64,000 nt of DNA from Clostridium sp. CAG:762 (GTDB taxonomy: Bacteria; Bacillota_I; Bacilli_A; RF39; UBA660): positions 129 through 64,128 of the forward strand of contig HF996781.1 of the NCBI GenBank assembly GCA_000432575.1, in the 5' to 3' direction. Every line of letters begins with the position of its first letter. Within the stretch, counting starts at the first letter, position 1. Shown in pieces: positions 21,773 to 63,696 of the stretch. A program made the translations under genes and the position numbers. The notes under the pieces are model-generated. The model did no database searches and was not told the origin of the DNA. It saw only the letters and a program-made list of their open reading frames with translations.

Positions 21773-21817
21773 AAAAACTTGATATTTTGCATAAATAGTA
21801 GTATAATTAGATTACAT

Positions 21818-21941
21818 CTTATAAAGAGTGATGGAGGGACTAGCCCAGTGAAATCACACCAACCTATTTAATTAGGTGGTAATGCTAGAGCGATAAGATA
21901 ACTTTATACATTCAAGAAGTTATCTTGGATGTTTTTCTTTT
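21818..21941 (+). promoter_or_regulatory. SAM-I (S-box) riboswitch with intrinsic terminator, leader of metK
   Basis: CTTATAAAGAGTGATGGAGGGACTAGCCCAGTGAAATCACACCAACC...GGTGGTAATGCTAGAGCGATAAG matches the S-box consensus. Terminator hairpin AGATAACTT-N12-AAGTTATCT plus T-run. Confidence 0.8.
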
Positions 21942-45500: not shown

Positions 45501-45618
45501 TACAAATTATTTGAAGCAATTAGAGGGATATATGGAGTATATTAAGAGTATTAGTAATAAGGATGTTAATATTTATTTGTATTCACTTATTGATAAGAAG
45601 TATAAGAAATTAAATTAA
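42550..45618 (+). CDS. addA: UvrD/Rep-family helicase with C-terminal RecB-like PD-(D/E)xK nuclease (AddA/RexA-like), no AddB partner adjacent
   Basis: Walker A SAGAGSGKTAVL. UvrD motifs (DEYQDTN). C-terminal GIIDLMLEY...IIDYKLKN nuclease motif. Confidence 0.65.
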   Translation: MATMWTNEQLDAINKEGTNIIVSAGAGSGKTAVLTERVIRKLKSGVPITRLLILTFTNMASKEMKDRIRESIKDDESLKEQLNLLDTAFITTFDSYALSIVKKYHYKVGVSNNIEIAESSIIDLKKIELIDKIFESFYCKDDDLFIKLITDFCIKDDKEIKDYILTISNKLDMKYDKIDYLNGYLNNYYSDTFLDNMILEYTKLLNKIIDEIKELLTNISSYVDSNYYLKLETSMINLLSANDYDSIKENINIKLPMIPRGTGDEAKKLKEEIKNNIDKLKEYAIYDDVNHIKETILLTKDYAKVIVSILLKLDKELNDYKKENELYDFTDIAKLAIKIVSENDDIKEELRNSYNEIMIDEYQDTNDLQELFISNISNNNTYMVGDVKQSIYKFRNANLYIFKNKYDNYANLDGGIKIDLNKNFRSREEVISGINLIFDYIMNDNMGGASYKKEHRMIFGNLTYNAFKAKQNNSLEIYNYNEDKKFSKEETEIFIIANDILNKIKNNYQVYDKNKKELRSVDYSDFVILVDRITNSYLYKKIFKYLNIPLIVYKDSVINDSVIYTVIKNIIGLIIKVYSKCYDEEFKYLYVSIARSFLVEYKDDYIFDVVMNNKYYETSLFNRVKDIAGKVDYLTISGVLDLIIDDFNIYDNLIKIGNISDCLSDINYMKELFLKMNNYNLSELYDYLKGINDNGIDLKYLKVDNFTNGVKLMTIHRSKGLEYNICYYNMLFKEFNLRDVTDKFYYDNKYGIVMPYIDNGINRTIISKMVKDNYYNEEISERIRLFYVAMTRAKEKMIVIVNDIYESDVKKKFKSFRDIILSIRDCLSNNITDYDISKINITRDYNYGKNDVYRADNAKVLKVNELVIDNGYIEESSYSKKTNNIFSYDEKKLLEVGERLHYILEVIDLKHPNLDIIKDYFIRDKVSSLLSSDLFKNIGNAKIYKEYEFIYNHDLVKRHGIIDLMLEYDNYIDIIDYKLKNIDDTNYLKQLEGYMEYIKSISNKDVNIYLYSLIDKKYKKLN

Positions 45619-48388: not shown

Positions 48389-48502
48389 TTATGCAGTTTT
48401 ATTGCAAATAATCCAGCTTAATACGGAAATTTTAAAAAATACTCAATTCGACATAAAAAAACAAATCAATTGTTGTATAATTATATTCGAGGAGATGATG
48501 TA

Positions 48503-49936
48503 ATGAAACTATCAGATTATGAAAATGTTGAATCTACTTATATAGATTTTAAAGAGAGTCTAGAAACGGATAAACCAAAGAGTTGGTTAAAAACAGTATC
48601 TGCTTTTGCAAATACAAAAGGAGGAATCTTGTTATATGGTGTAAGAGATACAGATAAAAAACCGATAGGTTTAGATAATATATCTGAAGTATCATCAAAA
48701 ATTACAGAGTTAGTCAATTCCAAAATATCTCCTGTTCCTAGATATGAATTAAATTCTTTTAAGGAAGATGAGAAAGATTTTTTAGAAGTCAAAGTTGGAG
48801 ATGGCCCTGAAACACCATATTATTATAGCAGTGATGGAAGAAAAACTGCTTATATTAGAGCTGGAGATCAAAGTATAGAAGCACCTGATCATATATTGAA
48901 AAGTTTAATTTTAAAAGGCCAAAATAGAACATTTGATGCAATTGCTTCTGAGTATAAAATAGATGATGTTAGTTTTACATTGCTGGATGCAACTTTAAAA
49001 AAAGAAGCAAATGTTATAGTTAATAAAGATCGTGATTATCTTTCATTTAATTTGGTTAATAAAGATGGTTATGTTACTAATGCTGGGCTTTTGCTATCTG
49101 ACCAAGGATTGTTAAAGCAATCAAAAGCTTTTTGTACAAAATGGAAGGGAACTGTAAAAGGATCTGTTGAGGGGGATGCTGAAGACGATAAAGAATACAA
49201 TGGAAGCATAATAAGTATTCTTGCTAATGCAGAAACATTTATAAAAAATAATTCAAAAACATCATGGCAAATAAATGGTATGCATAGAGATGAATTTGAG
49301 GACTATCCTACAAAAGCTGTTCGTGAAGCTTTAGTTAATGCAATAATACATAGGGATTATCAAATCTTGGGTTCTGAAATACACATCGATATGTTTGATG
49401 ATAGACTTGAAATTACATCACCAGGAGGAATGGTTGATGGCAGTCAAATACAAGATTTAGATTTAACTAAAATTCCGTCATTAAGAAGAAATACAATTAT
49501 TTCAGATCTATTTGGTAGATTACATTATATGGATAGAAGAGGAAGTGGAATAACAAGAATTTTGGAATCTTATTCAGATTGTTCAATGAAACCAAAGTTT
49601 ACATCTGGAGTATCAAGCTTTACTGTTATCTTTCCAAATAAAAGATATGTAAAAGAGAACAAAGTTACAGAACGAGAGAGAATAATTATTACTAATGATT
49701 CGGATTATTTTATTGTAAAAATGTATAAGAATCTTTCAGGAAAAGTTAGAGGAAATTATTTGGCAAATTTGGAAAACTTATTTAATGAATATGGATATGA
49801 TACTCCTTTCAATAGGGAAAAAGTTGAAAATGCATTTGGAGTAAAAAAATCAAGAGCTTTAGATATAATCAATCAATTAATTAATTGTGATATTTTAGAG
49901 TATGCAGAAGATACAAAATATAGATTTAAAAGATAA
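48503..49936 (+). CDS. AlbA_2 (Schlafen-like) DNA-binding domain plus HATPase_c_4 (RecG-C-terminal-like) domain protein, C-terminal wHTH
   Basis: YIDFKESLE...AFANTKGGILLYGV (AlbA_2). REALVNAIIHRDY (HATPase_c_4). RBS GAGGAG before the internal ATG. Confidence 0.6.
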   Translation: MKLSDYENVESTYIDFKESLETDKPKSWLKTVSAFANTKGGILLYGVRDTDKKPIGLDNISEVSSKITELVNSKISPVPRYELNSFKEDEKDFLEVKVGDGPETPYYYSSDGRKTAYIRAGDQSIEAPDHILKSLILKGQNRTFDAIASEYKIDDVSFTLLDATLKKEANVIVNKDRDYLSFNLVNKDGYVTNAGLLLSDQGLLKQSKAFCTKWKGTVKGSVEGDAEDDKEYNGSIISILANAETFIKNNSKTSWQINGMHRDEFEDYPTKAVREALVNAIIHRDYQILGSEIHIDMFDDRLEITSPGGMVDGSQIQDLDLTKIPSLRRNTIISDLFGRLHYMDRRGSGITRILESYSDCSMKPKFTSGVSSFTVIFPNKRYVKENKVTERERIIITNDSDYFIVKMYKNLSGKVRGNYLANLENLFNEYGYDTPFNREKVENAFGVKKSRALDIINQLINCDILEYAEDTKYRFKR

Positions 49937-49947
49937 AAGGCTAGGAT

Positions 49948-51072
49948 TTATTCCTGGTCTTCATTCATTTCATCAATAAGTGATGTTATATCAGTTAATG
50001 CATTTTTATAAAGATGAGTATAAGTATTAAGCGTTTCTTCTATTTTTGTATGTCCCAAAAATTTGAAAACAGTAATAATATTAGCACCTTTATGTATTAA
50101 TAAAGAAGCACAAGAATGTCTAAAGTCATGGATCATTATTTTCTTAACACCAGCAAGTTCACAATTGCGATTTTTTCTACCTGTAATAGTATTGCTGATT
50201 TGTGGAGCGACATCACTAATTACAAAGTAAGTATCCTGAAAGCCAAATAACAATTCATAATCACTTTCGTTAAGTGTTTTTAGGTCAGTTAAGAGTACTT
50301 TTGTTAATGGCAATACTCTATTACTTCTAACTGTTTTTGGTGGTGAGAATGTCCATCTAGAGCGACATGATTACTGAGTTATTTGTTTATTTATGCTTAC
50401 AGTTCTATTTCCAAAATTAATGTCTTTCCAAGTTATACCTTTTAGTTCTCCAATTCTTAATCCGCAGTAGTGGAGTAGTTGCCATGCACATCTAAATTTA
50501 ATATCTTTTTCTACAGATAAGAATTTTTGAAATTTATCATAAGTGAAATATAGCATTTCTTTTGGAAGTTCATTTGGATTATTAAAATTATGCATTTTTT
50601 TATAAACATGTATAAAGCTGAAGCCATACCAATCAGTAGCATAGTTTAATAATGATTTAAGAAATTTTTAAATATCATTTTTGTATCTGGTAGATAAGTT
50701 GCAACTATTTATATATCGTCTCCATCTTTCGTATACTTTAATATTAAAATCTTTTAATCTAATATTTGAAATTATATCTAAATATGGTCGTTTATTTCTA
50801 TAACCATACATAGTAGTATCCTTAACTATAGTGGATCTGTTTTTAATAAACAAATTAATAAGTTGTCCAAATGTAAATGCACAAACACTTGCTTCATTCT
50901 GTGATTTTATTAATAACTCAGCTTCAGTTTCTTGAGCTTCTCTTTTTGTCATATATCTTTTAGAATGATATTGAGCTCCCGTTCCATCTAATTTTTTATA
51001 TTTTGTTCTAAAATACCAGTACTTTCCACTTTTAGCAGGAACTTTATCTTTATATACAGGCATTTTAATCAT
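49948..51072 (-). pseudogene. tyrosine recombinase (phage-type integrase) disrupted into three ORF fragments
   Basis: 50668..51072 carries the N-terminal arm/SAM-like domain. 50371..50595 carries box I (GLRIGEL). 49948..50313 carries box II (HDFRHSCASLL...LGH...Y). The fragments are in different frames. Confidence 0.7.
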
Positions 51073-51475: not shown

Positions 51476-51649
51476 TATAACCTCCGTAATGCATTAATCG
51501 CTTAAATTTTGGAATTAGTCAACATATTCATACAAAAATTCAAATTTTGTAATAAAAATCTAGTCAAATATCTAAAAATTGATGTTTTTATGGTATAATT
51601 ATGAGTAGGAGAAAATAGCTTAAAACTTAGAAAAGGAGGTACATTGGTT

Positions 51650-52318
51650 ATGAAAAAGAGAAGCAAGATATTGATAGATTTAATAAATGATGAAATTGAT
51701 GTAAAAAAAGCATTTCAGCTGTTATCATTACTTCTAGAAGATTTGGATGATAAGGAAATTGAAAACTGGTTGAATTATGAGTTGAATGGATATCCTAAAA
51801 ATGTTGGTGTACCCAGATACAGAGTGATTAATGCATCAATAATAGGTACAGTTAAAACCTATACTATGATTATTAGCAAATATGATATTCCGGTGCCTTT
51901 TGAAGATAAAGAGAAATTATGTAAACATGAAGTAAGAGATAGTATTGCTGAAATATGCCAATATGCTAAAGCTGAAGAGGAATCTGATATGCATTGCTTG
52001 TTATCACCAATTGATATTGGATATATTAACTCTGTTGCCCTTATTAATGATGCAGAAGTTACACACGCCAATTTACAATTAAGTATGTATGGTTATACTA
52101 ATGTATTGCACTGGTTAAAGGACAAATTAATAGAAATTTTTAAAAAACTAGAAAAAAAATATGGTAATCTTGATGAGTACTATATAGACTTTAAAACTTG
52201 TAAAGATAAAAAAGACATAACAAAAGCATTATTACAAATTATATATAATGACAATTCCGTTAGGATTGGCAATAATAATAAAATAGATAAAAGCAAAGTG
52301 GGAAATAATAATGATTAA
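51650..52318 (+). CDS. AbiTii-like abortive-infection protein (tentative)
   Basis: The N-terminal ..IDVKKAFQLLSLLLEDLDDKEIENWLNYELNGY.. resembles the AbiTii domain. RBS AAAGGAGGT. Location in a defense island. Confidence 0.4.
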   Translation: MKKRSKILIDLINDEIDVKKAFQLLSLLLEDLDDKEIENWLNYELNGYPKNVGVPRYRVINASIIGTVKTYTMIISKYDIPVPFEDKEKLCKHEVRDSIAEICQYAKAEEESDMHCLLSPIDIGYINSVALINDAEVTHANLQLSMYGYTNVLHWLKDKLIEIFKKLEKKYGNLDEYYIDFKTCKDKKDITKALLQIIYNDNSVRIGNNNKIDKSKVGNNND

Positions 52319-52488: not shown

Positions 52489-54054
52489 ATGAATAATAAG
52501 GAAAGAGAAAGAGAAGAACTTCATAAAACAATTTGGAAAATTGCAAATGAGTTAAGAGGTTCAGTCGATGGATGGGATTTTAAACAATACGTTTTAGGAT
52601 TATTATTTTATAGATTTATATCAGAAAACATTGAAAATTATGTTAATGAAAATCAAAGAAAAGCAGGTATTACAGATTTTCAATATAGAAATATTTCTGA
52701 TGAGGAAGCATTACTTGGAAAATTACAAATACTTGATGAAAAAGGATTCTTTATTCTTCCAAGTGAATTATTCTGCAACATAAGAAAAGGTGCAGATAAA
52801 AATGAAAACTTAAATGTTGTTATTTCAAATGTATTTAATAACATAGAATCATCGGCAAGAGGAACAGCGTCAGAAGATGATGTTAAAGGTTTATTTGATG
52901 ATTTTACTATTGATAATAAATTAGGAAACACGGTTGATGAAAGAAATGAAAAACTTGTTAAATTATTAAATGCAGTTGGGGATTTAAACTTTGGCGATTA
53001 TGAAGATAATAACATTGACTTATTCGGAGATGCTTATGAGTTCTTGATGACAATGTATGCTTCATCAGCAGGCAAATCGGGTGGAGAATTCTTTACTCCT
53101 CAAGAAGTTGGAGAATTACTTGCAAGAATAGTAATAATGGATAAAACATCTGTTAATAAAGTATACGATCCAGCATGTGGATCAGGTGGATTACTTTTAA
53201 AATTTGCTAAGATACTTGGAAAAGAGAATGTAAGAGAAGGCTTCTTCGGTCAAGAGATAAATCTTACAACTTACAACTTAGCTAGAATTAATATGTTTTT
53301 ACATAACATTAATTACAATAACTTTAGTATTGAAAGAGGAGATACATTAATACATCCAGTACATTGGAATGATGAACCATTTGATGCAATAGTATCTAAT
53401 CCTCCTTATTCAATAAAATGGGCAGGTAAGTCTAATCCACTTTTAATAAATGATGAACGATTTGCTCCAGCAGGTGTGTTAGCACCTGAATCAAAAGCCG
53501 ATTTAGCATTTACTATGCATATGTTATCATGGTTATCACCTAAAGGAACTGCAGCTATAGTAGAATTTCCTGGTGTACTTTACAGAGGTGGAGCAGAACA
53601 AAAAATTAGAAAGTACATGATTGATAACAACTTTGTTGATACTGTCATTCAATTACCTTCAGATTTATTCTTTGGTACATCAATAGCAACTTGTATATTA
53701 GTATTAAAGAAAAATAAATCAGATAATAATATTTTATTTGTAGATGCTTCTAGTGAATGTGTTAGAAATACTAATAAAAACAAATTATCAGAAGAAAACA
53801 TCAATAATATAATTAGTTTATTAAAAGATAGAAAATCAGTAGAAAATAAATCTTATATAGCAACTTATGAAGAGATTAAAGATAATGATTATAATATTTC
53901 AGTTAATTCTTATTTAAGAACAAATATTGAAACTAAAAAAATTGATATAGAAAAGGTAAATAGAAAACTTGCTGAAATTGTACCTAAACAACAACAAATT
54001 AGAGAAGAACTAGAAGAAATAATCAAGGAACTTGAGGCTGATTATCATGAGTAA
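52489..54054 (+). CDS. hsdM: type I restriction-modification system DNA methyltransferase subunit HsdM
   Basis: AdoMet motif I DPACGSGGLL and catalytic motif IV VSNPPYS. RBS GGAGGT. Confidence 0.9.
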   Translation: MNNKEREREELHKTIWKIANELRGSVDGWDFKQYVLGLLFYRFISENIENYVNENQRKAGITDFQYRNISDEEALLGKLQILDEKGFFILPSELFCNIRKGADKNENLNVVISNVFNNIESSARGTASEDDVKGLFDDFTIDNKLGNTVDERNEKLVKLLNAVGDLNFGDYEDNNIDLFGDAYEFLMTMYASSAGKSGGEFFTPQEVGELLARIVIMDKTSVNKVYDPACGSGGLLLKFAKILGKENVREGFFGQEINLTTYNLARINMFLHNINYNNFSIERGDTLIHPVHWNDEPFDAIVSNPPYSIKWAGKSNPLLINDERFAPAGVLAPESKADLAFTMHMLSWLSPKGTAAIVEFPGVLYRGGAEQKIRKYMIDNNFVDTVIQLPSDLFFGTSIATCILVLKKNKSDNNILFVDASSECVRNTNKNKLSEENINNIISLLKDRKSVENKSYIATYEEIKDNDYNISVNSYLRTNIETKKIDIEKVNRKLAEIVPKQQQIREELEEIIKELEADYHE

Positions 54055-55183
54055 GATAAATGATCTAATAAAAGAATTGTGTCCTAATGGTGTTGAATGT
54101 AAACTGTTAAGAGATGTATCCGAGATGAAGAGAGGGCAATCAATTACTACAAAAAATCTTAACGAAGGAAATTTTCCGGTAATTGCAGGAGGACAAGAAC
54201 CATCTTTTTATAACGATAAATATAATAGGGAAGGCGAAACTATAACAGTATCTAGTTCGGGTGCTTATGCTGGATTTTTAAATTATTGGAACGAACCAAT
54301 CTTATGTACAGATTCTTTCACTATAAAATCCAAAAAACTAAATATGAGATATTTATATCATTATCTAAAAATGATACAAAATGAAATTTATAATAAAAAA
54401 AGGGGAGCCGGTATTCCACATGTTCATATATCGGATTTGGAAAAAATTAAGATTCCATGCCCTCCGTTAGAAGTGCAGGAAGAAATAGTTAGAATTCTTG
54501 ATAAATTTGGCGAGCTAGAAGCGGAGCTAGAAGCGGAGCTAGAAGCGAGAAAGATTCAATATGAGTTTTGGTGTGGGAAACTTTTGAATAGCGAGAATTC
54601 TAATCAACAATATATAACTTTAGGAGATATAGGTAAGGTTTGTATGTGTAAAAGAATTATGAAAAACGAAACATCAGATTCAGGAGATGTTCCATTTTAT
54701 AAAATCGGTACATTTGGTAAGCAAGCTGATGCATATATATCTTATGATATTTTCAATGATTATAAAAAAAGGTTTTCTTATCCTAAGAAAGGCGAAATAT
54801 TAGTTTCGTGCTCTGGAACAATAGGAAGATCTGTAGTATTTGATGGCGAAGATGCCTATTTTCAAGATTCAAATATTGTGTGGCTAAGTAATGATGAAAG
54901 CAAAGTATTAAATAAGTTTTTGTATTACTTTTATCAAACTTCACCATGGAATATATCTGATGGCGGAACTATTAAAAGATTATATAATAATCAGTTTATA
55001 TCAGCTAAAGTTCCATTATATTCTTTAGAAGAACAAAAGAAGATTGTTGATATATTAGAACGATTTGATACATTAATTAACGATATATCTGATGGTCTTC
55101 CTGCAGAAATAAAATTAAGAAGAAAGCAGTATGAATACTATCGAAATAAACTATTAAGCTTTGAGGTTTGTAACGATGAATAA
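54047..55183 (+). CDS. hsdS: type I RM specificity subunit HsdS (two target-recognition domains plus central conserved region)
   Basis: The start overlaps the hsdM stop (ATGAGTAA). Central LDKFGELEAELEAELEARK coiled coil and C-terminal conserved region. Confidence 0.85.
   Translation: MSKINDLIKELCPNGVECKLLRDVSEMKRGQSITTKNLNEGNFPVIAGGQEPSFYNDKYNREGETITVSSSGAYAGFLNYWNEPILCTDSFTIKSKKLNMRYLYHYLKMIQNEIYNKKRGAGIPHVHISDLEKIKIPCPPLEVQEEIVRILDKFGELEAELEAELEARKIQYEFWCGKLLNSENSNQQYITLGDIGKVCMCKRIMKNETSDSGDVPFYKIGTFGKQADAYISYDIFNDYKKRFSYPKKGEILVSCSGTIGRSVVFDGEDAYFQDSNIVWLSNDESKVLNKFLYYFYQTSPWNISDGGTIKRLYNNQFISAKVPLYSLEEQKKIVDILERFDTLINDISDGLPAEIKLRRKQYEYYRNKLLSFEVCNDE
54512..54547 (+). repeat. 3 x 12-nt perfect tandem repeat (GAGCTAGAAGCG) encoding ELEA x3 in the HsdS central conserved region
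   Basis: Read directly from the sequence. Confidence 0.85.
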
Positions 55184-55628
55184 AGATTTTAATTTAAGTA
55201 TAAAAAAATTAAATATATTAATCGAATATGTTAATAAATGTGAAATTGATGAAAATGAATTATATGAAAAAATGGTTGATACTTTCAGCTATATTGGAGC
55301 ATTTTATGATTATACAGATAAAAAAGCATTAACTAAAGAACAAAATGTATATTTAAAATGTTGCTCTGTTTTAAATAATGTATTTAAACATAAAAAAGAA
55401 TTGAATGGTTTAATAGAAGAATTAAAAATAATAAAATATGGAACTGATTTAAGTCACTGTCTATTAGATGCACCATTTGGAGATGTTGTATATTTTCAAA
55501 ATTCATTATATTTAGAAAATATGCGTGATTCAAATAATTATAATTATTATAAGAAAAACATTGAAAATCAAAGACTTGATATATTTTTATCAAAAGTAGA
55601 GAAAGTGTTGGGTGAATTAAATGACTAA
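55176..55628 (+). CDS. hypothetical 150-aa protein embedded between hsdS and hsdR (orfX)
   Basis: The ATG overlaps the hsdS stop and the stop overlaps the hsdR start (ATGACTAA), so the gene is translationally coupled in the operon. No recognisable motif. Predicted helical. Confidence 0.55.
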   Translation: MNKDFNLSIKKLNILIEYVNKCEIDENELYEKMVDTFSYIGAFYDYTDKKALTKEQNVYLKCCSVLNNVFKHKKELNGLIEELKIIKYGTDLSHCLLDAPFGDVVYFQNSLYLENMRDSNNYNYYKKNIENQRLDIFLSKVEKVLGELND

Positions 55629-58600
55629 TATAGGTTTAATAAGTGAAAATGATAACTCTACAGTACTTGCTGAATATAAAGGATTAAATAGAGTAACAAC
55701 TTCTTTTCAGAGTGAAGATGCTCTTGAAAAAGAATTAATAAAAACTTTAGTTGAACAGGGTTATGAAAGATTAAATATTAATTCTGTAGATGAATTAATT
55801 CTTAATTTAAGAAAACAACTTGAAAGACTTAATAATTATCATTTTACTGATGGAGAATGGGATGATTTCTTTACCAAAGTAATTGCTAATAAGAATGATT
55901 ATATAATTGAAAAGACAAAATTAATTCAAGAAGATTATAAACAAGAAATAACTCTTGATTCGGGAGAAAAGAAAAATATTTATTTAATAGATAAAAATAA
56001 TATTCATAATAATAGTCTTCAAGTGTTAAATCAATATGTTAATAATGATGGTAATTTTGATAATAGATATGATGTGACAATTTTAGTGAATGGTCTTCCT
56101 TTAGTTCACATTGAATTAAAGAAAAGAGGAGTAGATCTAAGAGAAGCTTTTAACCAAATAGAAAGATATCAAAGAGATTCATTTTGGGCAGGCTCAGGAT
56201 TATATAACTTTATTCAAATATTTGTTATTTCTAATGGTACATTAACTAAATATTATTCTAATACTACAAGAGAATTTCACATTAATAATCAAAGAAAAAA
56301 GAAATCTAACTCATTTGAATTTACTTCATATTGGGCAGATCAAAAGAATAATGGAATTACAGATTTAATTGACTTTGCTAAAACATTCTTTACTAAACAT
56401 ACGTTATTAAATGTATTAACTAAATATTGTGTATTTACTTCTGAAGAAGATTTACTTGTTATGAGACCATATCAAATAGTTGCAACTGAAAAGATATTAA
56501 ATAGAATAACTATTGCTTATAATAACAAGTTCTATGGAACTATTAAATCAGGAGGATATATTTGGCATACAACTGGTTCTGGAAAAACATTAACTTCATT
56601 TAAAACATCCCAACTTGCTAGTAAGTTAGATTTTATTGATAAAGTATTATTTGTTGTAGATAGAAAAGACTTAGACTATCAAACAATGAAAGAATATGAT
56701 AGATTTAAAGAGGGAGCAGCTAATTCTAATACATCAACAAAAGTATTAGAAGAACAATTGAAGGATCCAAATGCTAAGATAATAATAACTACTATTCAAA
56801 AGCTTTCTCAATTTATTAAGAAGAATGAACAAAGCGATGTATTTAATAAACATGTAGTATTTATATTTGATGAATGTCATAGATCACAATTTGGCGATAT
56901 GCATAAAACAATTATTAAGAAATTTAATAAATACTATTTATTTGGATTTACTGGAACTCCAATATTCCCAGAAAATGCTAGAACAATAAAAGGTATCTCT
57001 GAAACAACAGAGCAAATCTTTGGAGAAAGATTACATACTTATACAATAGTAAATGCTATTGCAGATAAGAATGTTTTACCATTCAGATATGAATATGTTG
57101 GCAGAGTAGATATATCTGATGATGTTAAAGATGAAAAAGTATATAACATTGATGAAGAAAAATTATTTGATAATCAAGTTAGAATTAATTTAATAACAGA
57201 TTATATTATTGAACATTTTAGCACAAAGACTAAAACTTCTGAAAGTTATGTGTATTCAACTTTAGATAATGTAGTTGATGTTGCTAAAAAACAAGATGCA
57301 GAAGAAGTTAAATCAAAGAAAAGTATAAATGGATTTAATTCTATATTTGCTGTATCAAGTATTAAAATGGCTAAAGAATATTATGCTGAATTTAAAAAAG
57401 AACTTGCATTAAAGAATAGTAATTTAAAAGTGGCATTAATGTATTCTTATGGTGTTAATGGCGAAGATGGAGTAATTGATGAAAATTCTGAATCAACAGA
57501 AGCTTTAAGTACAGATGATAGAACATTCTTAGATAATGCAATTAAAGATTATAATAATATGTTTGGAACAAGTTATGATACTTCATCAGAAAGATTCCAA
57601 AATTATTATAAAGATGTATCATTAAGAATGAAAAATAGAGAAATAGATATATTAATCGTTGCTAATATGTTCCTAACAGGATTTGATGCTAAAACTTTAA
57701 ATACATTATGGGTAGATAAGAACTTAAAATGGCATGGATTAATTCAAGCATTCTCAAGAACTAATAGAATCCTTAATAGTGTTAAGACATATGGAAATAT
57801 TGTGTCATTTAGAAATTTAGAAGATAGGCTAAATGAAGCGTTAGCTAAATTTGGTGATGAGGAAGCTCACGGAATAGTTTTATTAAAACCATATAATGAT
57901 TACTACTATGGATATGAAGATGATAATGGTAAAACATTTGAGGGATATAAATCATTAGTTGAAAAATTGACTTCTAAATTTGCACCAGGAGTATTAATGC
58001 AGAGCGAAGCAGAACAAAAAGAGTTTATTAAACTATATGGTGCAATATTAAAAGTAACAAATATCTTATCTTCATTCGATGAGTTCAAAGATAATGAATT
58101 AATTAATGAAAGAGATAAGCAAGATTATCATAGTATCTATATTGAACTTTATAATGAATTTAGAAATAAAGCTAAGCAAGAAAAAACGGATGTTACTGAA
58201 GATGTAGTATTCGAAATGGAATTAATTAAATCTATAGAAGTTAACATTGATTACATCTTAGGATTAGTTAAGAAATATCATGATAGCAACATGGAAGATA
58301 AAGAAATTCTTTTAACTATTCAAAAGACAATTATGGCAAGTCCAGATTTGAGAAATAAGAAAGATTTAATCATGGCATTTATTGAATCATTAGATCAAGA
58401 CTCAAATGTATATGCAGATTTTGAATCGTTTATGAATAGTAAAAAGAAAGAAGAATTAGATAAGATAATTGCAGAAGAGAATCTTAATAAAGAAGAAACA
58501 TACAACTTTATTCAAAGATCATTTGAACATGGAAGAGTAGAAACTAATGGTACAGAAGTATCAACAATACTTCCTCCAATGAGTATGTTTACTCCTAATA

Positions 58601-58689
58601 ATGATAGACAAGAAAAGAAGAATAAAGTTATAGATAAACTATTAGAATTCTTTGATAAATTCTTCAGTATGTCTAACAATAAATTCTAA
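55621..58689 (+). CDS. hsdR: type I RM restriction/helicase subunit HsdR
   Basis: N-terminal nuclease motif D..VNGLPLVHIELKK. SF2 helicase motif I HTTGSGKTLT and motif II FIFDECHRSQ. 1022 aa. Confidence 0.9.
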   Translation: MTNIGLISENDNSTVLAEYKGLNRVTTSFQSEDALEKELIKTLVEQGYERLNINSVDELILNLRKQLERLNNYHFTDGEWDDFFTKVIANKNDYIIEKTKLIQEDYKQEITLDSGEKKNIYLIDKNNIHNNSLQVLNQYVNNDGNFDNRYDVTILVNGLPLVHIELKKRGVDLREAFNQIERYQRDSFWAGSGLYNFIQIFVISNGTLTKYYSNTTREFHINNQRKKKSNSFEFTSYWADQKNNGITDLIDFAKTFFTKHTLLNVLTKYCVFTSEEDLLVMRPYQIVATEKILNRITIAYNNKFYGTIKSGGYIWHTTGSGKTLTSFKTSQLASKLDFIDKVLFVVDRKDLDYQTMKEYDRFKEGAANSNTSTKVLEEQLKDPNAKIIITTIQKLSQFIKKNEQSDVFNKHVVFIFDECHRSQFGDMHKTIIKKFNKYYLFGFTGTPIFPENARTIKGISETTEQIFGERLHTYTIVNAIADKNVLPFRYEYVGRVDISDDVKDEKVYNIDEEKLFDNQVRINLITDYIIEHFSTKTKTSESYVYSTLDNVVDVAKKQDAEEVKSKKSINGFNSIFAVSSIKMAKEYYAEFKKELALKNSNLKVALMYSYGVNGEDGVIDENSESTEALSTDDRTFLDNAIKDYNNMFGTSYDTSSERFQNYYKDVSLRMKNREIDILIVANMFLTGFDAKTLNTLWVDKNLKWHGLIQAFSRTNRILNSVKTYGNIVSFRNLEDRLNEALAKFGDEEAHGIVLLKPYNDYYYGYEDDNGKTFEGYKSLVEKLTSKFAPGVLMQSEAEQKEFIKLYGAILKVTNILSSFDEFKDNELINERDKQDYHSIYIELYNEFRNKAKQEKTDVTEDVVFEMELIKSIEVNIDYILGLVKKYHDSNMEDKEILLTIQKTIMASPDLRNKKDLIMAFIESLDQDSNVYADFESFMNSKKKEELDKIIAEENLNKEETYNFIQRSFEHGRVETNGTEVSTILPPMSMFTPNNDRQEKKNKVIDKLLEFFDKFFSMSNNKF

Positions 58690-58772
58690 TTTAGTGGTAT
58701 AATATAAATAAATAATAGAGTGTGTTTCATTTTTAAGATGGAATATGCTCTTTTTTAGTTAGGAGGAATATA

Positions 58773-61700
58773 ATGATTCCAGAATTAGTTTTTAATAATA
58801 ATATGGAAAAATTAAATAAAGAGGATGCTGAAGCAATAAAACGTTTAAGGGAAGAATTAAAAAATTATAATATGATTGATTTTCTATCACAAATATCTGG
58901 ATTAATTTTAATTCCTGAAAATCAAAGCAAATCGGTTATTTTTCAAGCAATTATAAGTACGGCTCTATCATTAAAGCACGATGATTTTAAGAGTGAAAAT
59001 ATCATGAGTCGTAATAAGCTTGAGTACTTTATTAAAGAATTTTCAAATCTTAATAGAAAATATATGATAGATCCTCCTGAATTTCCTTTTGCATTACCTG
59101 TCATTTATTATGGCAATTATCATTTGTTTATGGGAGCTAGCACGTTAGCTCCACATTATTTAGATCATATGTTAAAAATATTAGGTGTCCATAAAGAGGA
59201 CTTTCCATATGAAGATTATAGAAAATTTAATACTGTTGTTAAGGGTTTACTAAATGTATCCGAGTTTGTTTATAATTCATTAAATATTAAACTTAAAGAT
59301 TTAAAATCTTTTAATAAAGATATTGATATCAAAATACCTTCAGCTAGCGTTCTTAAATCCAGTAAAGAAACAGTAACTTTTAGTAAAGAAGATATGGTTG
59401 AATTATTTGGAGAACAATATGAACAACTTGTTATTGAATTTGGGGAAATAAGTATTGATGAAATAGATGATTTCGATAATCAAAAGTTTTATCGTAAACC
59501 ATTTGTTAGATATGGTGAGAAATTTGTTTTGGTAGATTGCACTGTTATTATCATGCTATTAATGGATATGATAATTAAGTTTTTCATGTCATATAAAATT
59601 TATGTTCTAAAAGATTATAATCTTTTGCTTTTACAGGACTTGCATAGAGATTTTACACGCATGGGTTTCCAATTATTAGATAGCAAACAATTTGAATTGG
59701 AACTTGAAAGTAATAATATAGTTGATGAATCTATATATTTGTGTGGTAATGATATAGCTTTTTACAATATTGTTTTATTTGATGATGGAAAAGACTATGA
59801 AACTAACAAGGAATATAAATATTCAATAAATAATAATTATATAAGTAATCGAATAAAAAAGGTCAAAAAACAATTATTAAAACATGGTTTTAAAGAAGAT
59901 AAAATTGTAGTAATCATTACTCCGACAACTATTGGTAGAAATACTATATGCGCAGTATATTTGAATTCTAATAAAAATTTACTAATGCTTTCTCCATATG
60001 AATTAACGTCAATATGTATTAATGAGTCTGAAGAAAATATGTTTTTATACAAGTATATTGTTGCTAGAAATAGATTAAAACATTATAAAAAGAATTTGTT
60101 TACTGAACTAAATTTTGTTGCTCTTTTTTCTGAAAGAGATAAATCATTCTATCTAGGTGATGAATGTGATTCAAAAGAAGCATCATTGTTTTTTATTGGT
60201 GAATATAGTAGTGATTATATTTTAAAATCTTATATAAAAAATGGTTATCACTTAGCTCTTTTTAGTAGAACATCTTTATTAGAAGTGATGAAAAAGGAAG
60301 ATGGAGTTTGTTTTGCTCCTGAATTATTTTATAAGCATCAATTAAACAATTTGCTTGAATTTAATAAATTTAATATATGGGTTTTAAGCGAAGAAAATAT
60401 TGATAATAATTCTTATCATATAACAAATCTAATTATAGATATGATTTCATATTGGTTAAATCAATTTTCAACATTATTTAAAGATTTGAATGGAGTGTTT
60501 AAAATTAATATTCATTGTGATCCATCAATATATGTTACACATTATGACAAAAGTAGCGAAGTTGGTAAAATATTATTCAATATTAATAGTAGACAGTTAG
60601 ACATTACTTTTGAAAAAAACTCTTTAAGGTATTTCGAATCCACTGATAATGATAAAGAAAAAGATTTTATATCTAATATAGTAAAGAAAATATGTGAAAT
60701 CTATCAAATTGAGTATCCAAGTGAGTTGATTAATCAGATTTTTAGTAATAACTATAAAAAGAAACTAATTCTTATGAATTCTAATGATGATGGGTATATG
60801 CTTCCTTTTGATGATGAATGTGTTTTATACGTTAGTAATGCTATTTCAAATTTGATAATAGATGATGTAGGACTATATTTAAAAGATGACAGAAAAATAC
60901 CTTATGGGAAAATAGAAGATTATAAAATTTTAAATGATATCGTTGGACATCTATACAATAATATTCTGAAGAAAATTAAAAAGTATAATAAGCGTCAGTT
61001 AATAGATTTTTTATATCTAGAATTTGAAAAAAATTTATCATCATTATTAATAAGACAAGCAAATTATGCTAGCGATTTAGTATGCTATCCTGATAGAAAA
61101 AAAGAGATAGATGAAAAGATAAATGATTTGAATCGAACTTCAGTCGCATTAAAATTTATCATAGAATTAGTTTCATCAATTAAAATAGATGGAATCGATG
61201 ATATTTCGCTATATGAAATTGAATATATTTTAACAGAAGCTTCCAAAATAATTGATTATGCATATACATGTGATATTTACAACTATAAAATGGCCGATAA
61301 TACATTAACCTTATTAAATTCTAATCGATTAGGGTACAATAAAGATTTCTTGATAAGAGTAAACCATTTTTTAAAAAATGCAAAGATGGGTAGGATGGGA
61401 TCCAGAGCAAAAGATAAACGAAAAATGATATCGCAATATGAAACTGAGAAAAAAGATATTCCTGGATTTGAAGAAGCTTTTGAAGATGAATTTGGATTTA
61501 CATTTAAAGATTTTACTGAAGTAACTGTATCATTGTTGGAAATAGCTGAGGATAAAAATGGTGACTTTAACACATTGTATTCAACGACTATAAAAGAACT
61601 AAAAGATCACATAAATAATAAAGTTAGTGATGATACTTTAAATAAAATTATTTTATACTTATCTCAAGTTGAAAGAGAAGATTATTTAAATCCGCCTACA

Positions 61701-62372
61701 CCATATCGAAATGTAGATGTATTTCCATGGAGAAACAATAGGGAACTTTCATTAAATAGAAAACCACTTATTATTTATAAAGACGAAATTATTTATGGTT
61801 ATAGGTCTCTTTTAAATGCGATATACTTTTTGTTCGAAATAATTAATAATGCTACATTTAAGGCAAGAAGTAAAAAGATGAAAACTTACCTTGGTATTAT
61901 AAACAAACAAAGTGGAGAAGACTTTAACGAAAAAGTATATAATTATTTGTGTACATTTCCAAATTCCATTGTAGATAAAAAAGTTAGTAAAATTAATGGT
62001 ATAAAAATTAATGATTCAGATAAGAATACATTAGGAGATATTGATGTACTTTTTATCTCTAAAAAGTTTAAAAGAATTATTGTATGTGAAGTTAAAAATT
62101 TTGAATTATCAAGAAATATGTATGAAATGTATAATGAATACCATGATTTGTTTGATCCTGATAATGAAAAAAGCTTTTATAATAAGCATATGAAAAGAGT
62201 AGAGTGGTGCAAAGATCATATTATGGATATTATTCAACATTATGGCTTAGAAAAGAAAAAATGGAGAATTGATTATTGCTTTATTGTTAATGAACCTTTG
62301 ATAAGTGATAAAGCCATGAAAGTTAATATAAATGCTTATGTATTAGAAGATATAGATAAATTCATTAAATAA
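58773..62372 (+). CDS. very large (1199 aa) hypothetical protein with C-terminal PD-(D/E)xK (NERD/DUF4263-like) nuclease motif and no P-loop
   Basis: RBS AGGAGGAATATA. The C-terminal GDIDVLFISKKFKRIIVCEVKNFE has the D-x15-E-x-K pattern. No GxxxxGK[ST] and no helicase motifs. Lies immediately downstream of hsdR. Confidence 0.6.
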   Translation: MIPELVFNNNMEKLNKEDAEAIKRLREELKNYNMIDFLSQISGLILIPENQSKSVIFQAIISTALSLKHDDFKSENIMSRNKLEYFIKEFSNLNRKYMIDPPEFPFALPVIYYGNYHLFMGASTLAPHYLDHMLKILGVHKEDFPYEDYRKFNTVVKGLLNVSEFVYNSLNIKLKDLKSFNKDIDIKIPSASVLKSSKETVTFSKEDMVELFGEQYEQLVIEFGEISIDEIDDFDNQKFYRKPFVRYGEKFVLVDCTVIIMLLMDMIIKFFMSYKIYVLKDYNLLLLQDLHRDFTRMGFQLLDSKQFELELESNNIVDESIYLCGNDIAFYNIVLFDDGKDYETNKEYKYSINNNYISNRIKKVKKQLLKHGFKEDKIVVIITPTTIGRNTICAVYLNSNKNLLMLSPYELTSICINESEENMFLYKYIVARNRLKHYKKNLFTELNFVALFSERDKSFYLGDECDSKEASLFFIGEYSSDYILKSYIKNGYHLALFSRTSLLEVMKKEDGVCFAPELFYKHQLNNLLEFNKFNIWVLSEENIDNNSYHITNLIIDMISYWLNQFSTLFKDLNGVFKINIHCDPSIYVTHYDKSSEVGKILFNINSRQLDITFEKNSLRYFESTDNDKEKDFISNIVKKICEIYQIEYPSELINQIFSNNYKKKLILMNSNDDGYMLPFDDECVLYVSNAISNLIIDDVGLYLKDDRKIPYGKIEDYKILNDIVGHLYNNILKKIKKYNKRQLIDFLYLEFEKNLSSLLIRQANYASDLVCYPDRKKEIDEKINDLNRTSVALKFIIELVSSIKIDGIDDISLYEIEYILTEASKIIDYAYTCDIYNYKMADNTLTLLNSNRLGYNKDFLIRVNHFLKNAKMGRMGSRAKDKRKMISQYETEKKDIPGFEEAFEDEFGFTFKDFTEVTVSLLEIAEDKNGDFNTLYSTTIKELKDHINNKVSDDTLNKIILYLSQVEREDYLNPPTPYRNVDVFPWRNNRELSLNRKPLIIYKDEIIYGYRSLLNAIYFLFEIINNATFKARSKKMKTYLGIINKQSGEDFNEKVYNYLCTFPNSIVDKKVSKINGIKINDSDKNTLGDIDVLFISKKFKRIIVCEVKNFELSRNMYEMYNEYHDLFDPDNEKSFYNKHMKRVEWCKDHIMDIIQHYGLEKKKWRIDYCFIVNEPLISDKAMKVNINAYVLEDIDKFIK

Positions 62373-62375
62373 ATA

Positions 62376-62400
62376 AGAGTCGAAATTAATCGGCTCTTTC
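62376..62400. terminator. bidirectional hairpin between convergent genes
   Basis: AAGAGTCG-AAATTAAT-CGGCTCTT, with one G-T pair in the stem. Confidence 0.45.
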
Positions 62401-62679
62401 TTTATGACTTAAAAATGATATTTTTTCTGCTTTAATTATTAAACCATTTTCATCAGCATCTATTTTGCCCTTGATACCAATTAAAGAATTATCTTCACAA
62501 TTGTTTATTATTTTATGTGCAATATCTGTGCTAGTAATAATTGGAACAGTTAAATCTCCGTCTTCATCATTTATAACAATAACTAAACAAGAAACATTAT
62601 TATCAATAATTGTTGTTGATCTATATCTTCCAAGTAAAAGGCATCTATTTAGGTAATCCATCATTAATCTCCTTATCAA
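62386..62679 (-). CDS. hypothetical protein (97 aa), overlapping the upstream HTH ORF in another frame
   Basis: ORF only. May be the C-terminal part of a frameshifted gene. Confidence 0.35.
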   Translation of the reverse strand: MIRRLMMDYLNRCLLLGRYRSTTIIDNNVSCLVIVINDEDGDLTVPIITSTDIAHKIINNCEDNSLIGIKGKIDADENGLIIKAEKISFLSHKERAD

Positions 62680-62911
62680 AGTATGCTATTGATTTAAGAA
62701 ATTCTATATCTAGATCAAAGTACTTGATTACTTCCTTAGTGGGTATACAATAAGCAGGCATGAATTTATTAGGTTCTTTCTTTCTAAATTCTTTTTCAAT
62801 TGACTTTTTAATCTTGCTAGCTGTTGATGCAGAAACATTTGCAATCTTCATAATATCCTGATTAGAACACCAGGGTTTTGATATTATCTCTAATATTTCT
62901 TTAGCAATCAC
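62645..62911 (-). CDS. small HTH protein, DUF3173-like (integrase-adjacent regulator typical of Firmicute mobile elements)
   Basis: ..ILEIISKPWCSNQDIMKIANVSASTASKIKKSI.. shows an HTH. GTG start follows RBS AAAGGAGGT. Confidence 0.4.
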   Translation of the reverse strand: MIAKEILEIISKPWCSNQDIMKIANVSASTASKIKKSIEKEFRKKEPNKFMPAYCIPTKEVIKYFDLDIEFLKSIAYFDKEINDGLPK

Positions 62912-63258
62912 ACAAATACCTCCTTTCAAAAGGTATTGTATTAATCACTTATTTATTGGTATTAGTCAAGTATTTAGGACTAATTTTTATCGTATCTAAA
63001 TGTTAAATATAACAAATTACAATATAATTGTAATGATAAATTTAGGTCTCAATTGTGGTCTGATTATATGAATAATATAAGATAAAGCCTTATATTTTAT
63101 ATACTAAAAATGCTTTGTAAAAGATTTGACAAAATGATAAATTTTCCAAGAAATCCCCATCGCCCCCCCTGAAATCCCGTCTATATGGTGGGATACTTTG
63201 TTTATAAGGGCTTTATGCCATTTGATATATGTATTAGGTACCCAAATAGGTACCCATT

Positions 63259-63696
63259 TTAATTTAGTTTGTCTATAATATTAATTATTTCATTTAATTG
63301 ATTCTTAAATAGGTGAGAGTAAGTGTTTAATGTCTCATCTATTTTTGTGTGTCCTAAATACTTTGCTACAACGTTTATAGTAGCACCACTATTAATTAAA
63401 AGTGACGCACAACTATGTCTAAAATCGTATATTATAATTTGTTTAACTTCTGCCAACTTACAATCTTTGTTTTTTATATGCCTTAACTTTCCGTTTGTAA
63501 TTGGATCAGTATCTCCAAACAAATACCAGTCATCATTAAATCCATAATGTCTTTTAGAAACTTCATATAATACTTTCATCTCTTCCATTAATACTTTTGG
63601 TATAGGAATATTTCTTATACTAGATTTTGTTTTAGGTGTAGTTACCATATATGGTTTCTTTTCATCAACTTGAGTTGCTACAGTATTTGTTAACAC
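63259..63696 (-). pseudogene. N-terminally truncated tyrosine integrase (catalytic C-terminal half only)
   Basis: YDFRHSCASLLINSGATINVVAKYLGHTKIDETLNTYSHL carries box II and the Tyr region, about 70% identical to the 49948..50313 fragment. The arm and box I parts are absent. Confidence 0.65.

Follow-up and report, generated by a model that had tools for sequence, protein, structure and literature searches.

The gene that follows a type I restriction-modification (R-M) operon in the analysed window, a 64,000-nucleotide stretch of contig HF996781.1 of Clostridium sp. CAG:762, encodes a distant, full-length relative of Upx and, in view of this full-length homology, belongs to a known defence family rather than to an undescribed system. 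Homology extends along the whole 1199-aa protein, the modelled fold is that of Upx, the catalytic residues are invariant among homologues, and the defence-island context varies from one relative to the next. Judging from published work on the family, the gene very probably encodes a divergent Upx, that is, a stand-alone, NTPase-less anti-phage sensor-nuclease that would be triggered by terminase and act through abortive infection.

Upx was first reported as an uncharacterized PD-(D/E)xK defence protein by Gao et al. (2020, Science; as cited in PMC13601566). The cryo-EM structure of the Salmonella protein SeUpx (PDB 9wuf; PMC13099982) and terminase sensing by Upx (PMC13601566) were both published in 2026. 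SeUpx, a monomer, is an Mg-dependent 3'-5' exonuclease of ssDNA in which an N-terminal domain (NTD, 1-515) and a middle domain (MD, 516-714) precede the C-terminal domain (CTD).

Assignment to the Upx family

The single gene of the original prediction and its strong ribosome-binding site were both recovered (Table 1). As claimed, a motif check of the 1199-aa protein revealed no Walker A, GK[ST], DExx/DExH-helicase or MTase motif IV, nor was any corresponding Pfam domain found in it. Likewise, aa 250-272, the sole hydrophobic stretch, were modelled with confidence as a strand and helix lying buried and are not an obvious transmembrane segment, in line with the prediction that the protein lacks such segments. 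A single large polypeptide without an NTPase or helicase domain is what is expected of Upx (~1200-1300 aa).

Table 1. Features of the Upx-like gene and its surroundings (window coordinates).
Feature	Position	Strand	Basis and remarks
AbiTii-family abortive-infection gene	51644..52318	+	PF18864 E=7.7e-20; same island
Type I R-M operon hsdM-hsdS-orf155-hsdR	52489..58689	+	Pfam and PADLOC matches; neighbour of the Upx-like gene
TGgTATAAT, extended -10-like box, candidate own promoter	58695..58703	+	6 nt 3' of hsdR stop; read from sequence
16-bp hairpin + T6, putative hsdR terminator and/or leader attenuator	58717..58757	+	Terminator scan; between -10-like box and ribosome-binding site
Ribosome-binding site AGGAGG	58761..58766	+	From sequence, 6 nt 5' of ATG; kept in relatives
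Upx-like gene	58773..62372	+	ATG ORF, 1199 aa plus stop; family-model, profile and fold matches
NTD (aa 1 to ~478), putative terminase sensor	58773..60206	+	Profile 25-288 aligned to SeUpx 40-298; boundary approximate
MD (aa ~479-675)	60207..60797	+	Aligned to SeUpx MD 516-714 within 511-1160/541-1227; boundary approximate
Helical part of CTD (aa ~676-1033)	60798..61871	+	Aligned to SeUpx CTD; contains PWRxNRxLS
PWRxNRxLS motif (aa 985-993)	61725..61751	+	Conserved among homologues
PD-(D/E)xK nuclease core (aa ~1034-1199)	61872..62369	+	Model secondary structure; aligned to SeUpx core 1121-1272
Catalytic motif G1088-D1089-I-D1091 ... E1106-V-K1108	62034..62096	+	Invariant in 30/30 homologues
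Terminator-like 9-bp hairpin + T-rich tail	62375..62404	+	Just 3' of stop; shared with convergent small genes

The protein had been described as an orphan that could not be placed in any family. This proved wrong, as the Pfam label PF28173 "Upx-like" is assigned to this exact protein and to all 64 homologues retrieved in a word-indexed search (precomputed, E<=1e-5), and an exhaustive search using a profile of 1200 positions yielded 2847 clusters at 50% identity, nearly all of them full-length (1160-1290 aa). A Pfam-A scan with a copy of the database that does not contain PF28173 gave noise only. Relatives are spread over many bacterial phyla and also occur in some archaea; among their hosts are Pyrinomonadaceae and Chitinophagaceae, to which the tested PbUpx and HpUpx belong, and MCI5521359 and PBQ34572 are members of the clade of the present protein. 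This spread agrees with the published distribution of Upx (PMC13601566), for which a tree of 895 representatives was reported (Evans et al., PMC13601566).

Matches to existing family models are partial. The PADLOC Upx model (PDLC02221; E=7.4e-18) covers ~24% of the protein length, in the C-terminal quarter only, and NCBIfam Upx_antiphage (NF042954) matches aa 605-1163 only, with 85.4 bits (E=1.4e-24). This score does not reach the equivalog cutoff of 1900 bits, indicating that the protein is no close SeUpx orthologue while still allowing family membership. A phmmer search against the PDB matched 9wuf_A at E=8.3e-7, aligning GDIDVL with GDIDLL and CEVKNF with IECKDL, and a profile built from 30 homologues matched 9wuf_A with E=1.4e-61, the alignment falling into two collinear stretches, 25-288 with 40-298 (E 3e-14) and 511-1160 with 541-1227 (2.2e-44). 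The first covers the N-terminal region and the second the middle and C-terminal ones, so that homology reaches beyond the nuclease alone; aa ~290-510 are tied to SeUpx by fold only. The AlphaFold (AF2) model of the protein (pLDDT 89, pTM 0.86) matched 9wuf ('Cryo-EM structure of Upx') in a Foldseek search of the PDB with E=2.6e-42, probability 1.00, TM 0.69/0.69 and 14% identity over 1299 aligned columns. This was the sole PDB match with E<=0.001; the next best was the restriction enzyme BstEII, to which the CTD bears a weak resemblance.

Remote homology searching by profile and by Foldseek thus found Upx across the N-terminal, middle and C-terminal regions, and the claim of an undescribed defence protein whose architecture matches none does not hold, since layout, sequence profile and fold agree with Upx over the whole length. 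The reading as an anti-phage effector stands as far as the class is concerned (a large, NTPase-less single gene with a C-terminal PD-(D/E)xK domain in a defence island), but not for its novelty or its nearest relatives. Membership of the NERD, DUF4263 or Shedu (SduA) families was rejected, as none gave a match at E<=0.1 in Pfam or PADLOC; "Shedu-like" therefore denotes a shared-superfamily resemblance only.

Domain layout and the question of a second nuclease

The collinear NTD-MD-CTD order of SeUpx is recognizable in the present protein. In the AlphaFold model, a low-pLDDT linker at aa ~461-480 marks the approximate NTD boundary and pLDDT drops again at aa 661-680, near the approximate end of the MD. 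Invariant NTD residues in the homologue alignment are P48, N50, K53, D100, G121 and P243. Within the clade, the MD is the fastest-diverging part of the protein and the PD-(D/E)xK core the most conserved. In the PWRxNRxLS motif, P985 and W986 are invariant and N989, R990 and S993 nearly so; a search of genomes with this motif returned 105 relatives.

The C-terminal region folds in the model as a nuclease-type PD-(D/E)xK core with four strands, in the order helix (1034-1059), three strands (1065-1071, 1090-1096, 1101-1108), two helices (1116-1126, 1135-1148) and fourth strand (1165-1172). The predicted Asp...Glu-x-Lys motif is indeed present (GDIDVLFISKKFKRIIVCEVKNF, aa 1088-1110). Its position makes D1089/D1091, E1106 and K1108 the catalytic candidates, and not D1046/E1061/K1063 as originally numbered, ~45 residues too low. 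G1088, D1089, D1091, E1106 and K1108 are invariant in all 30 sequences of the homologue alignment. Moreover, D1091/E1106/K1108 align with SeUpx D1161/E1176/K1178 in both the phmmer and the hmmsearch alignments to 9wuf_A, and the SeUpx substitution E1176A abolishes defence (PMC13601566).

Two alternative readings of the protein itself bear on these data. According to the dual-nuclease model of Zhou et al. (2026), NTD and CTD are both nucleases, the MD auto-inhibits the NTD exonuclease, and a gp16-like ejection protein relieves this inhibition. The model derives from a biochemical report on SeUpx (PMC13099982), and the same NTD-MD-CTD layout is predicted here. However, SeUpx residues D122/D127/R129/E147/D173 correspond to I111/N115/H117/K135/E164 in the present protein and are thus not conserved; in the 30-homologue alignment the corresponding columns hold mostly hydrophobic residues, Asn, variable residues and Lys, and acidic residues are usual in the last one only. 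In addition, Evans et al. (PMC13601566) found gp16 non-activating and terminase to be the sole trigger. The lack of conservation of these residues, together with the invariance of the C-terminal triad, favours an N-terminal sensor over a family-wide dual nuclease, and we consider the latter very unlikely for this protein. Exceedingly improbable is that the gene represents an undescribed defence family, or a solitary, type IV-like restriction endonuclease cutting DNA without sensing a phage protein. The empty result with the Pfam copy used, the name 'Restriction endonuclease' given to 9wuf by its PDB depositors and the weak resemblance of the CTD to BstEII would fit this reading. Against it stand the full-length profile and fold homology, the PF28173 label, and the properties of SeUpx, which does not cut dsDNA in vitro and whose toxicity depends on terminase.

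Island context, leader and restriction-modification

In the co-oriented series that begins with hsdM (52489-54054) and continues with hsdS (54032-55183), a 155-aa ORF and hsdR (55621-58689), the Upx-like gene comes last. The proposed integrase-bounded island was borne out by integrase fragments on both sides (49948-50313 and 50668-51072; 63259-63696). By its base composition the island does not stand out as foreign (26.2% GC, compared with 25.1% over the window's first 48 kb), and neither an Avs1 gene nor a second Upx gene was found within the window. A 1022-aa ORF at 42550-45618 was considered as a second hsdR and rejected, as it encodes a UvrD-like helicase.

Although the gene was said to lie directly after hsdR, and is indeed the next co-oriented gene, an 83-bp spacer holding a TGnTATAAT box and a hairpin with a T-run intervenes. 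The box is retained in relatives' loci L009, L013, L085 and L086 despite different upstream operons. A consensus promoter scan returned 97 sites against 101 expected, not above chance in 25%-GC DNA, and the promoter assignment therefore derives from the conservation of TGnTATAAT only. The leader hairpin (-15.8 kcal/mol, z=-2.5) keeps its structure among relatives of 49-58% identity, with double changes in 6 of 14 pairs; it has no Rfam match, the only one in the window being a SAM riboswitch at 21816-21899. Box, hairpin and T-run travel together with the Upx-like gene. Downstream of the stop codon, the 62375-62404 hairpin folds with -13 kcal/mol (z=-4.1), a value reached by none of 200 shuffles.

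The position of the gene raises the question of a functional link to R-M, in which the Upx of this clade would be a PrrC-like accessory of the upstream system, co-transcribed by read-through of the leader hairpin and held latent or active according to the R-M state or to restriction-made DNA ends. In favour of such a guard, the gene stands last, co-oriented and directly after R-M modules of unrelated types, namely type I R-M in the window and in L006-L009, another type I plus a YgjP-like gene in L086/L013, a Dam-like MTase plus HNH in L085, L088 and L010, type III Res in L015, a BpuSI-like IIG enzyme in L017, an Eco57I-type MTase in L019 and an 810-aa N6-MTase in L041. R-M domains are the commonest class among the upstream genes of 41 loci, this recurring place just 3' of R-M modules in the clade could exceed co-location, and the hairpin and T-run after hsdR could permit regulated read-through. 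On the other hand, the differing R-M types make a specific protein-protein partnership unlikely, many relatives adjoin non-R-M genes (T5orf172, Fic, KAP NTPase, Schlafen helicase, SIR2, Gabija, BrxL), and the TGnTATAAT box moves with the Upx-like gene. R-M systems are, moreover, the commonest residents of defence islands generally. SeUpx, HpUpx and PbUpx also function as single genes in E. coli (PMC13601566). On balance, an R-M-coupled guard appears quite unlikely.

An obligate partnership with type I R-M was rejected. The expected co-occurrence was found in the closest clade, where hsd genes adjoin Upx, but elsewhere this position is held by R-M systems of other types or by genes unrelated to R-M, and L016 keeps a 98%-identical Upx next to an hsdR reduced to a 92-aa remnant. 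The homologues lie beside a variety of defence genes, none of them a constant partner, and the type I R-M operon counts as a single example among many exchangeable island neighbours. A related idea, which we regard as unlikely, is that Upx in this low-GC gut Bacilli clade forms a portable "tail cassette" (TGnTATAAT box, conserved terminator-like leader hairpin, ribosome-binding site and gene) placed behind R-M operons of any type, the hairpin acting as a regulated attenuator or read-through element that couples a toxic, late-acting terminase sensor to restriction as the first line of defence. If so, the cassette would be a hard-wired two-layer defence module and not a chance co-location.

Proposed mode of action and significance

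Returning to the preferred reading of a stand-alone sensor-nuclease, the protein would be idle as a monomer until its N-terminal region (NTD plus MD) recognises a late-infection phage protein, in the most likely case the large-terminase ATPase domain. The Mg2+-dependent C-terminal PD-(D/E)xK nuclease (D1091, E1106, K1108) would then be released onto nucleic acid, stopping phage replication at the expense of the cell. The Upx-like protein probably acts alone, with the type I R-M operon, AbiTii and the integrase remnants as island neighbours.

Defence function, terminase trigger, nuclease substrate and abortive outcome are most likely those of the Upx literature, from which we infer them. Co-expression of terminase ATPase domains was toxic with SeUpx, HpUpx and PbUpx (PMC13601566), and phage resistance that is lost in a nuclease-dead mutant was reported for SeUpx and HpUpx only. 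The trigger is disputed between gp16 (PMC13099982) and terminase (PMC13601566), and the published terminase-binding mode is based on AlphaFold 3 models (PMC13601566), in which the N-terminal regions of SeUpx, HpUpx and PbUpx hold a threaded, beta-augmented ATPase domain with an ipTM of about 0.8. Functional equivalence to SeUpx is an extrapolation, given ~14% identity, 85 versus 1900 bits and ~24% PADLOC coverage. Divergence among the tested Upx proteins is just as large: SeUpx and HpUpx, at only 16% identity, each confer defence and have terminase ATPase domains as their trigger (PMC13601566).

With Upx, the present protein shares the ~1200-aa single polypeptide without an NTPase, the whole-chain fold, the D...ExK triad and the defence-island setting. 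It differs in sequence and in the NTD residues discussed above, in that the gene of its clade usually follows an R-M module, with a conserved hairpin leader, and in that its host belongs to a 25%-GC gut Bacilli/Mollicutes-like MAG lineage. Shedu (SduA, DUF4263) and NERD nucleases resemble it in the PD-(D/E)xK superfamily and a C-terminal D...ExK in a defence protein, whereas the homology of its N-terminal 1000 aa is with Upx, not with Shedu. Avs1-3, antiviral STAND NTPases, presumably share the large-terminase trigger and likewise combine a sensor domain with a nuclease effector in abortive infection, but the present protein has no STAND/P-loop NTPase and no TPR sensor. PrrC of the type I R-M locus EcoprrI is similar in that a nuclease of the abortive type is encoded next to hsd genes; in contrast, there is no sequence or fold relation, the Upx-like gene lies behind hsdR and a terminator-like hairpin, and its relatives have differing R-M partners or none.

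In other respects the gene is an unremarkable resident of a defence island, and the structure and trigger of its family were reported in 2026. Two questions in the Upx literature can be approached by natural comparison with its clade, in which the residues of the proposed N-terminal nuclease are not conserved but the C-terminal triad is invariant. The known range of Upx now includes a gut lineage of uncultured, extremely AT-rich Bacilli/Mollicutes-like bacteria, in which standard defence annotators are likely to miss such a gene because the PADLOC model covers a quarter of it only and its score lies far below the NCBIfam cutoff.

Assignment to the Upx family

Upx was discovered by Gao et al. 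(2020; reference 17 of PMC13601566). The 3.0 Å structure of Salmonella Upx (SeUpx, PDB 9wuf), a monomer, comprises an N-terminal domain (NTD, 1-515), a middle domain (MD, 516-714) and a C-terminal domain (CTD, 715-1272), with a canonical PD-(D/E)xK core at 1121-1272 that includes D1161, E1176 and K1178 (Zhou et al. 2026, PMC13099982).

The gene under study had been predicted to encode an orphan protein with an unplaceable N-terminal region. A 5.8-billion-protein database holds 64 homologues, all of which match Pfam family PF28173 ('Upx-like'), and a precomputed PF28173 match exists on the exact protein; our own Pfam scan was empty because the Pfam copy scanned lacked this model. The PADLOC Upx model matches aa 858-1160 (E=7.4e-18) and the NCBIfam model 'anti-phage protein Upx' aa 605-1163 (E=1.4e-24), the latter scoring 85 bits, far under its equivalog cutoff of 1900. 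Failing this narrow cutoff, the gene represents a divergent branch of Upx.

A single-sequence search of the PDB retrieved chain 9wuf_A (1272 aa, E=8.3e-7), in which GDIDVL of our protein is paired with GDIDLL and CEVKNF with IECKDL. A profile of 30 aligned homologues matched the same chain at E=1.4e-61. The match comprises two collinear stretches, profile 25-288 with SeUpx 40-298 and 511-1160 with 541-1227, so that the kinship also covers the N-terminal and middle regions. For the AlphaFold2 model built on this alignment (mean pLDDT 89.0, pTM 0.86), the sole significant Foldseek match among 350,542 PDB chains was 9wuf, labelled 'Cryo-EM structure of Upx' (E=2.6e-42, probability 1.00; TM-score 0.69 under both normalisations, 1299 aligned columns, 14% identity), followed by the PD-(D/E)xK restriction enzyme BstEII (E=0.04). 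Judged by sequence profile, curated Pfam family and whole-chain fold, the gene very probably belongs to the known Upx family. The original prediction was right in kind in proposing a defence nuclease; the protein is not an undescribed one.

The nuclease motif GDIDVLFISKKFKRIIVCEVKNF is present at residues 1088-1110, although the candidate acidic and lysine residues earlier numbered D1046/E1061/K1063 are in fact D1089/D1091, E1106 and K1108. D1091, E1106 and K1108 correspond to SeUpx D1161, E1176 and K1178 at a constant offset of 70, and G1088, D1089, D1091, E1106 and K1108 are invariant in all 30 aligned homologues, down to 18% identity. Residues 1034-1199 of the model form the expected helix-strand-strand-strand-helix-strand nuclease core. 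As predicted, Walker A, helicase and methyltransferase motifs are absent, and there is no obvious transmembrane segment: in the model the sole hydrophobic stretch (aa 250-272) is a confidently placed, buried strand and helix. Across the clade, divergence is fastest in the middle domain and slowest in the nuclease core, yet all four regions can still be aligned.

Family spread, island and leader

An exhaustive profile search covering 1.84 billion cluster representatives found 2847 clusters at E<=0.001, of which 1303 reach E<=1e-30; nearly all of the best 150 of the 2847 are 1160-1290 aa long and match end to end in one stretch. Species-representative genomes with relatives belong to Bacillota, Bacteroidota, Actinomycetota, Chloroflexota, Acidobacteriota, Planctomycetota, Cyanobacteriota, Myxococcota-type lineages and Methanotrichaceae archaea, and include Pyrinomonadaceae and Chitinophagaceae, the source taxa of the tested proteins PbUpx and HpUpx. 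The gene's own lineage (25% G+C) is made up of MAGs from the human gut with the labels 'uncultured Bacilli' or 'Mollicutes bacterium' (95-98% identity); a YqfD homologue in the window shows that the host is a Bacillota lineage with sporulation genes and not a classical mollicute. Fourteen metagenomic contigs carry the exact protein, in the same island every time.

The predicted ORF, its RBS, its place behind a type I restriction-modification (R-M) operon and the flanking integrase fragments are all real: the gene is the final co-oriented one behind hsdM, hsdS, a 155-aa ORF and hsdR. The 155-aa ORF overlaps hsdS and hsdR and is apparently coupled to them in translation. Pfam, PADLOC and NCBIfam give no family for it. 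It is confined to the identical islands L001-L004; a search of the type I operons of L006-L009, which are related, did not detect it. Two small genes converge on Upx; they have homologues beside it in the close clade (L005-L009, L013, L016) and may belong to a decayed integrative element. Further upstream, a TraG/VirD4-type gene hints at a conjugative element, and an ORF of exactly the length of hsdR proved to be a helicase gene, not a duplicate hsdR.

Features of the window and leaders of relatives (L, loci in other genomes or contigs)
Feature	Position	Strand	Remarks
SAM (S-box) riboswitch	21816-21899	+	64.4 bits, gathering score 44.4; upstream of ORF 21982-23007
TraG/VirD4-type coupling protein	29970-32003	+	T4SS-DNA_transf
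YqfD homologue	38143-39324	+	stage IV sporulation protein
UvrD/REP-type helicase	42550-45618	+	1022 aa
Schlafen/AlbA_2-HATPase_c_4 gene	48470-49936		upstream of Upx-like gene
Tyrosine recombinase fragment	49948-50313		flanking block
Tyrosine recombinase fragment	50668-51072		Arm-DNA-binding; flanking block
AbiTii-family gene	51644-52318		upstream of Upx-like gene
hsdM	52489-54054	+	Pfam/PADLOC
hsdS	54032-55183	+	Pfam/PADLOC
155-aa ORF	55161-55628	+	between hsdS and hsdR
hsdR	55621-58689	+	EcoR124-like; Pfam/PADLOC
hsdR-Upx spacer	58690-58772		83 bp
TGgTATAAT box	58695-58703	+	in spacer
16-bp hairpin, then T6	58717-58757	+	in spacer; -15.8 kcal/mol, z=-2.5
RBS AGGAGG	58761-58766	+	in spacer, 5' of Upx-like ORF
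Upx-like ORF	58773..62372	+	ATG start, 1199 aa
Hairpin, T-rich tail	62375-62404	+	after Upx stop codon; -13 kcal/mol, z=-4.1
Two small overlapping genes	62386-62929	-	~88-94 aa, HTH-like N-terminus; ~91-97 aa, weak OB-fold match to tRNA_anti-codon (E=0.002)
Tyrosine recombinase fragment	63259-63696		flanking block, other side
TGnTATAAT, 14-16-bp hairpin, T-run, RBS	L009:7183-7260; L013:9932-10003; L085:7930-8003; L086:7931-8003		leaders of relatives

Box, hairpin, T-run and RBS are kept in relatives of 49-58% protein identity with unrelated upstream operons. In a sample of only eight sequences, 6 of the 14 pairs had changed on both sides with pairing kept. Rfam has no matching family for the leader. 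In a 97%-identical relative (L005:1-120), similarity upstream of Upx stops within the 5' arm of the hairpin, which marks a recombination or rearrangement breakpoint at the cassette edge. The leader thus belongs to the Upx cassette, which behaves as a mobile unit. The leader could terminate upstream transcripts, attenuate a dedicated promoter, or both.

Activation and genomic context

SeUpx was reported to be a Mg2+-dependent 3'-5' ssDNA exonuclease leaving dsDNA uncut, with a second, atypical nuclease site in its NTD (D122, D127, R129, E147, D173) that is auto-inhibited by the MD and freed by phage gp16 (PMC13099982). In the other study, diverse large terminases activate SeUpx, HpUpx (16% identical to SeUpx) and PbUpx, the terminase ATPase domain alone being enough; E1176A removes both defence and toxicity, gp16 is non-activating, and AlphaFold 3 models place the unfolded ATPase domain in an N-terminal sensor via beta-augmentation (Evans et al. 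2026, PMC13601566). In our protein the positions equivalent to the five NTD-site residues hold I111, N115, H117, K135 and E164, and the alignment columns read I/N/M/L, N/S, variable, K/Y/N and D/E/T/N; this branch has thus not conserved the second site, and its conserved N-terminal residues are instead P48, N50, K53, D100-P101, G121 and P243. This pattern fits a sensor better than a family-wide dual nuclease and, gp16 being non-activating in PMC13601566, a dual nuclease freed by gp16 is improbable here. A new family or a plain restriction enzyme is more doubtful still, in view of the profile, Pfam and fold evidence. By homology with the tested proteins, the most probable mechanism is that the large terminase of a phage triggers the protein and activates its C-terminal PD-(D/E)xK nuclease, with abortive infection as the outcome. 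Upx membership combined with such a terminase-triggered abortive-infection nuclease is likely; that terminase is the specific trigger is reasonably probable.

The window's neighbouring genes were compared with 84 loci by tblastn. Related hsdMSR genes adjoin Upx in the closest clade (L006-L009) alone. At 30-58% identity, R-M components of other kinds often occupy the co-oriented position directly upstream: a second sort of type I system with a YgjP-like gene (L086/L013), a Dam-like MTase with an HNH endonuclease (L085, L088, L010), a type III Res (L015), a BpuSI-like type IIG enzyme (L017), an Eco57I-type MTase (L019) or an 810-aa N6-MTase (L041). In low-GC Bacillota relatives (L085, L086, L088, L010, L015, L017, L019 and L041, with the Upx match at ~8001 or ~10001) the gene is repeatedly the final co-oriented one behind R-M modules of differing types, an adjacency that is frequent, not universal. 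Such placement would suit a guard coupled to an R-M system, but the R-M kinds differ, R-M domains are present in a minority of 41 loci even though no other class is as common in the two genes preceding Upx, and L016 carries a 98%-identical Upx beside an hsdR remnant of 92 aa; we consider such an R-M-coupled guard unlikely.

Upstream genes elsewhere encode T5orf172, Fic-HTH, KAP NTPase and Schlafen-type helicase proteins. Immediate neighbours in distant relatives match Gabija GajA, BrxL, SoFic, AbiO, AbiLi, AriA, Nhi and candidate systems, and in L085 AbiEi/AbiEii and Hachiman lie directly 3' of Upx between integrase fragments. In a Pyrinomonadaceae MAG (L043:6204-13636), tblastn detects a second Upx-like stretch directly 5' of the main match; several Actinomycetota and Desulfomonilaceae loci have an extra ~1100-1200-aa ORF ahead of the Upx-like gene, with upstream ORFs of 1111-1199 aa in L045, L049 and L051. 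These arrangements are consistent with published 'second Upx' or Avs1 associations. Overall, such changing neighbours are the signature of a stand-alone gene in variable defence islands, in agreement with the tested Upx proteins, which act as single genes.
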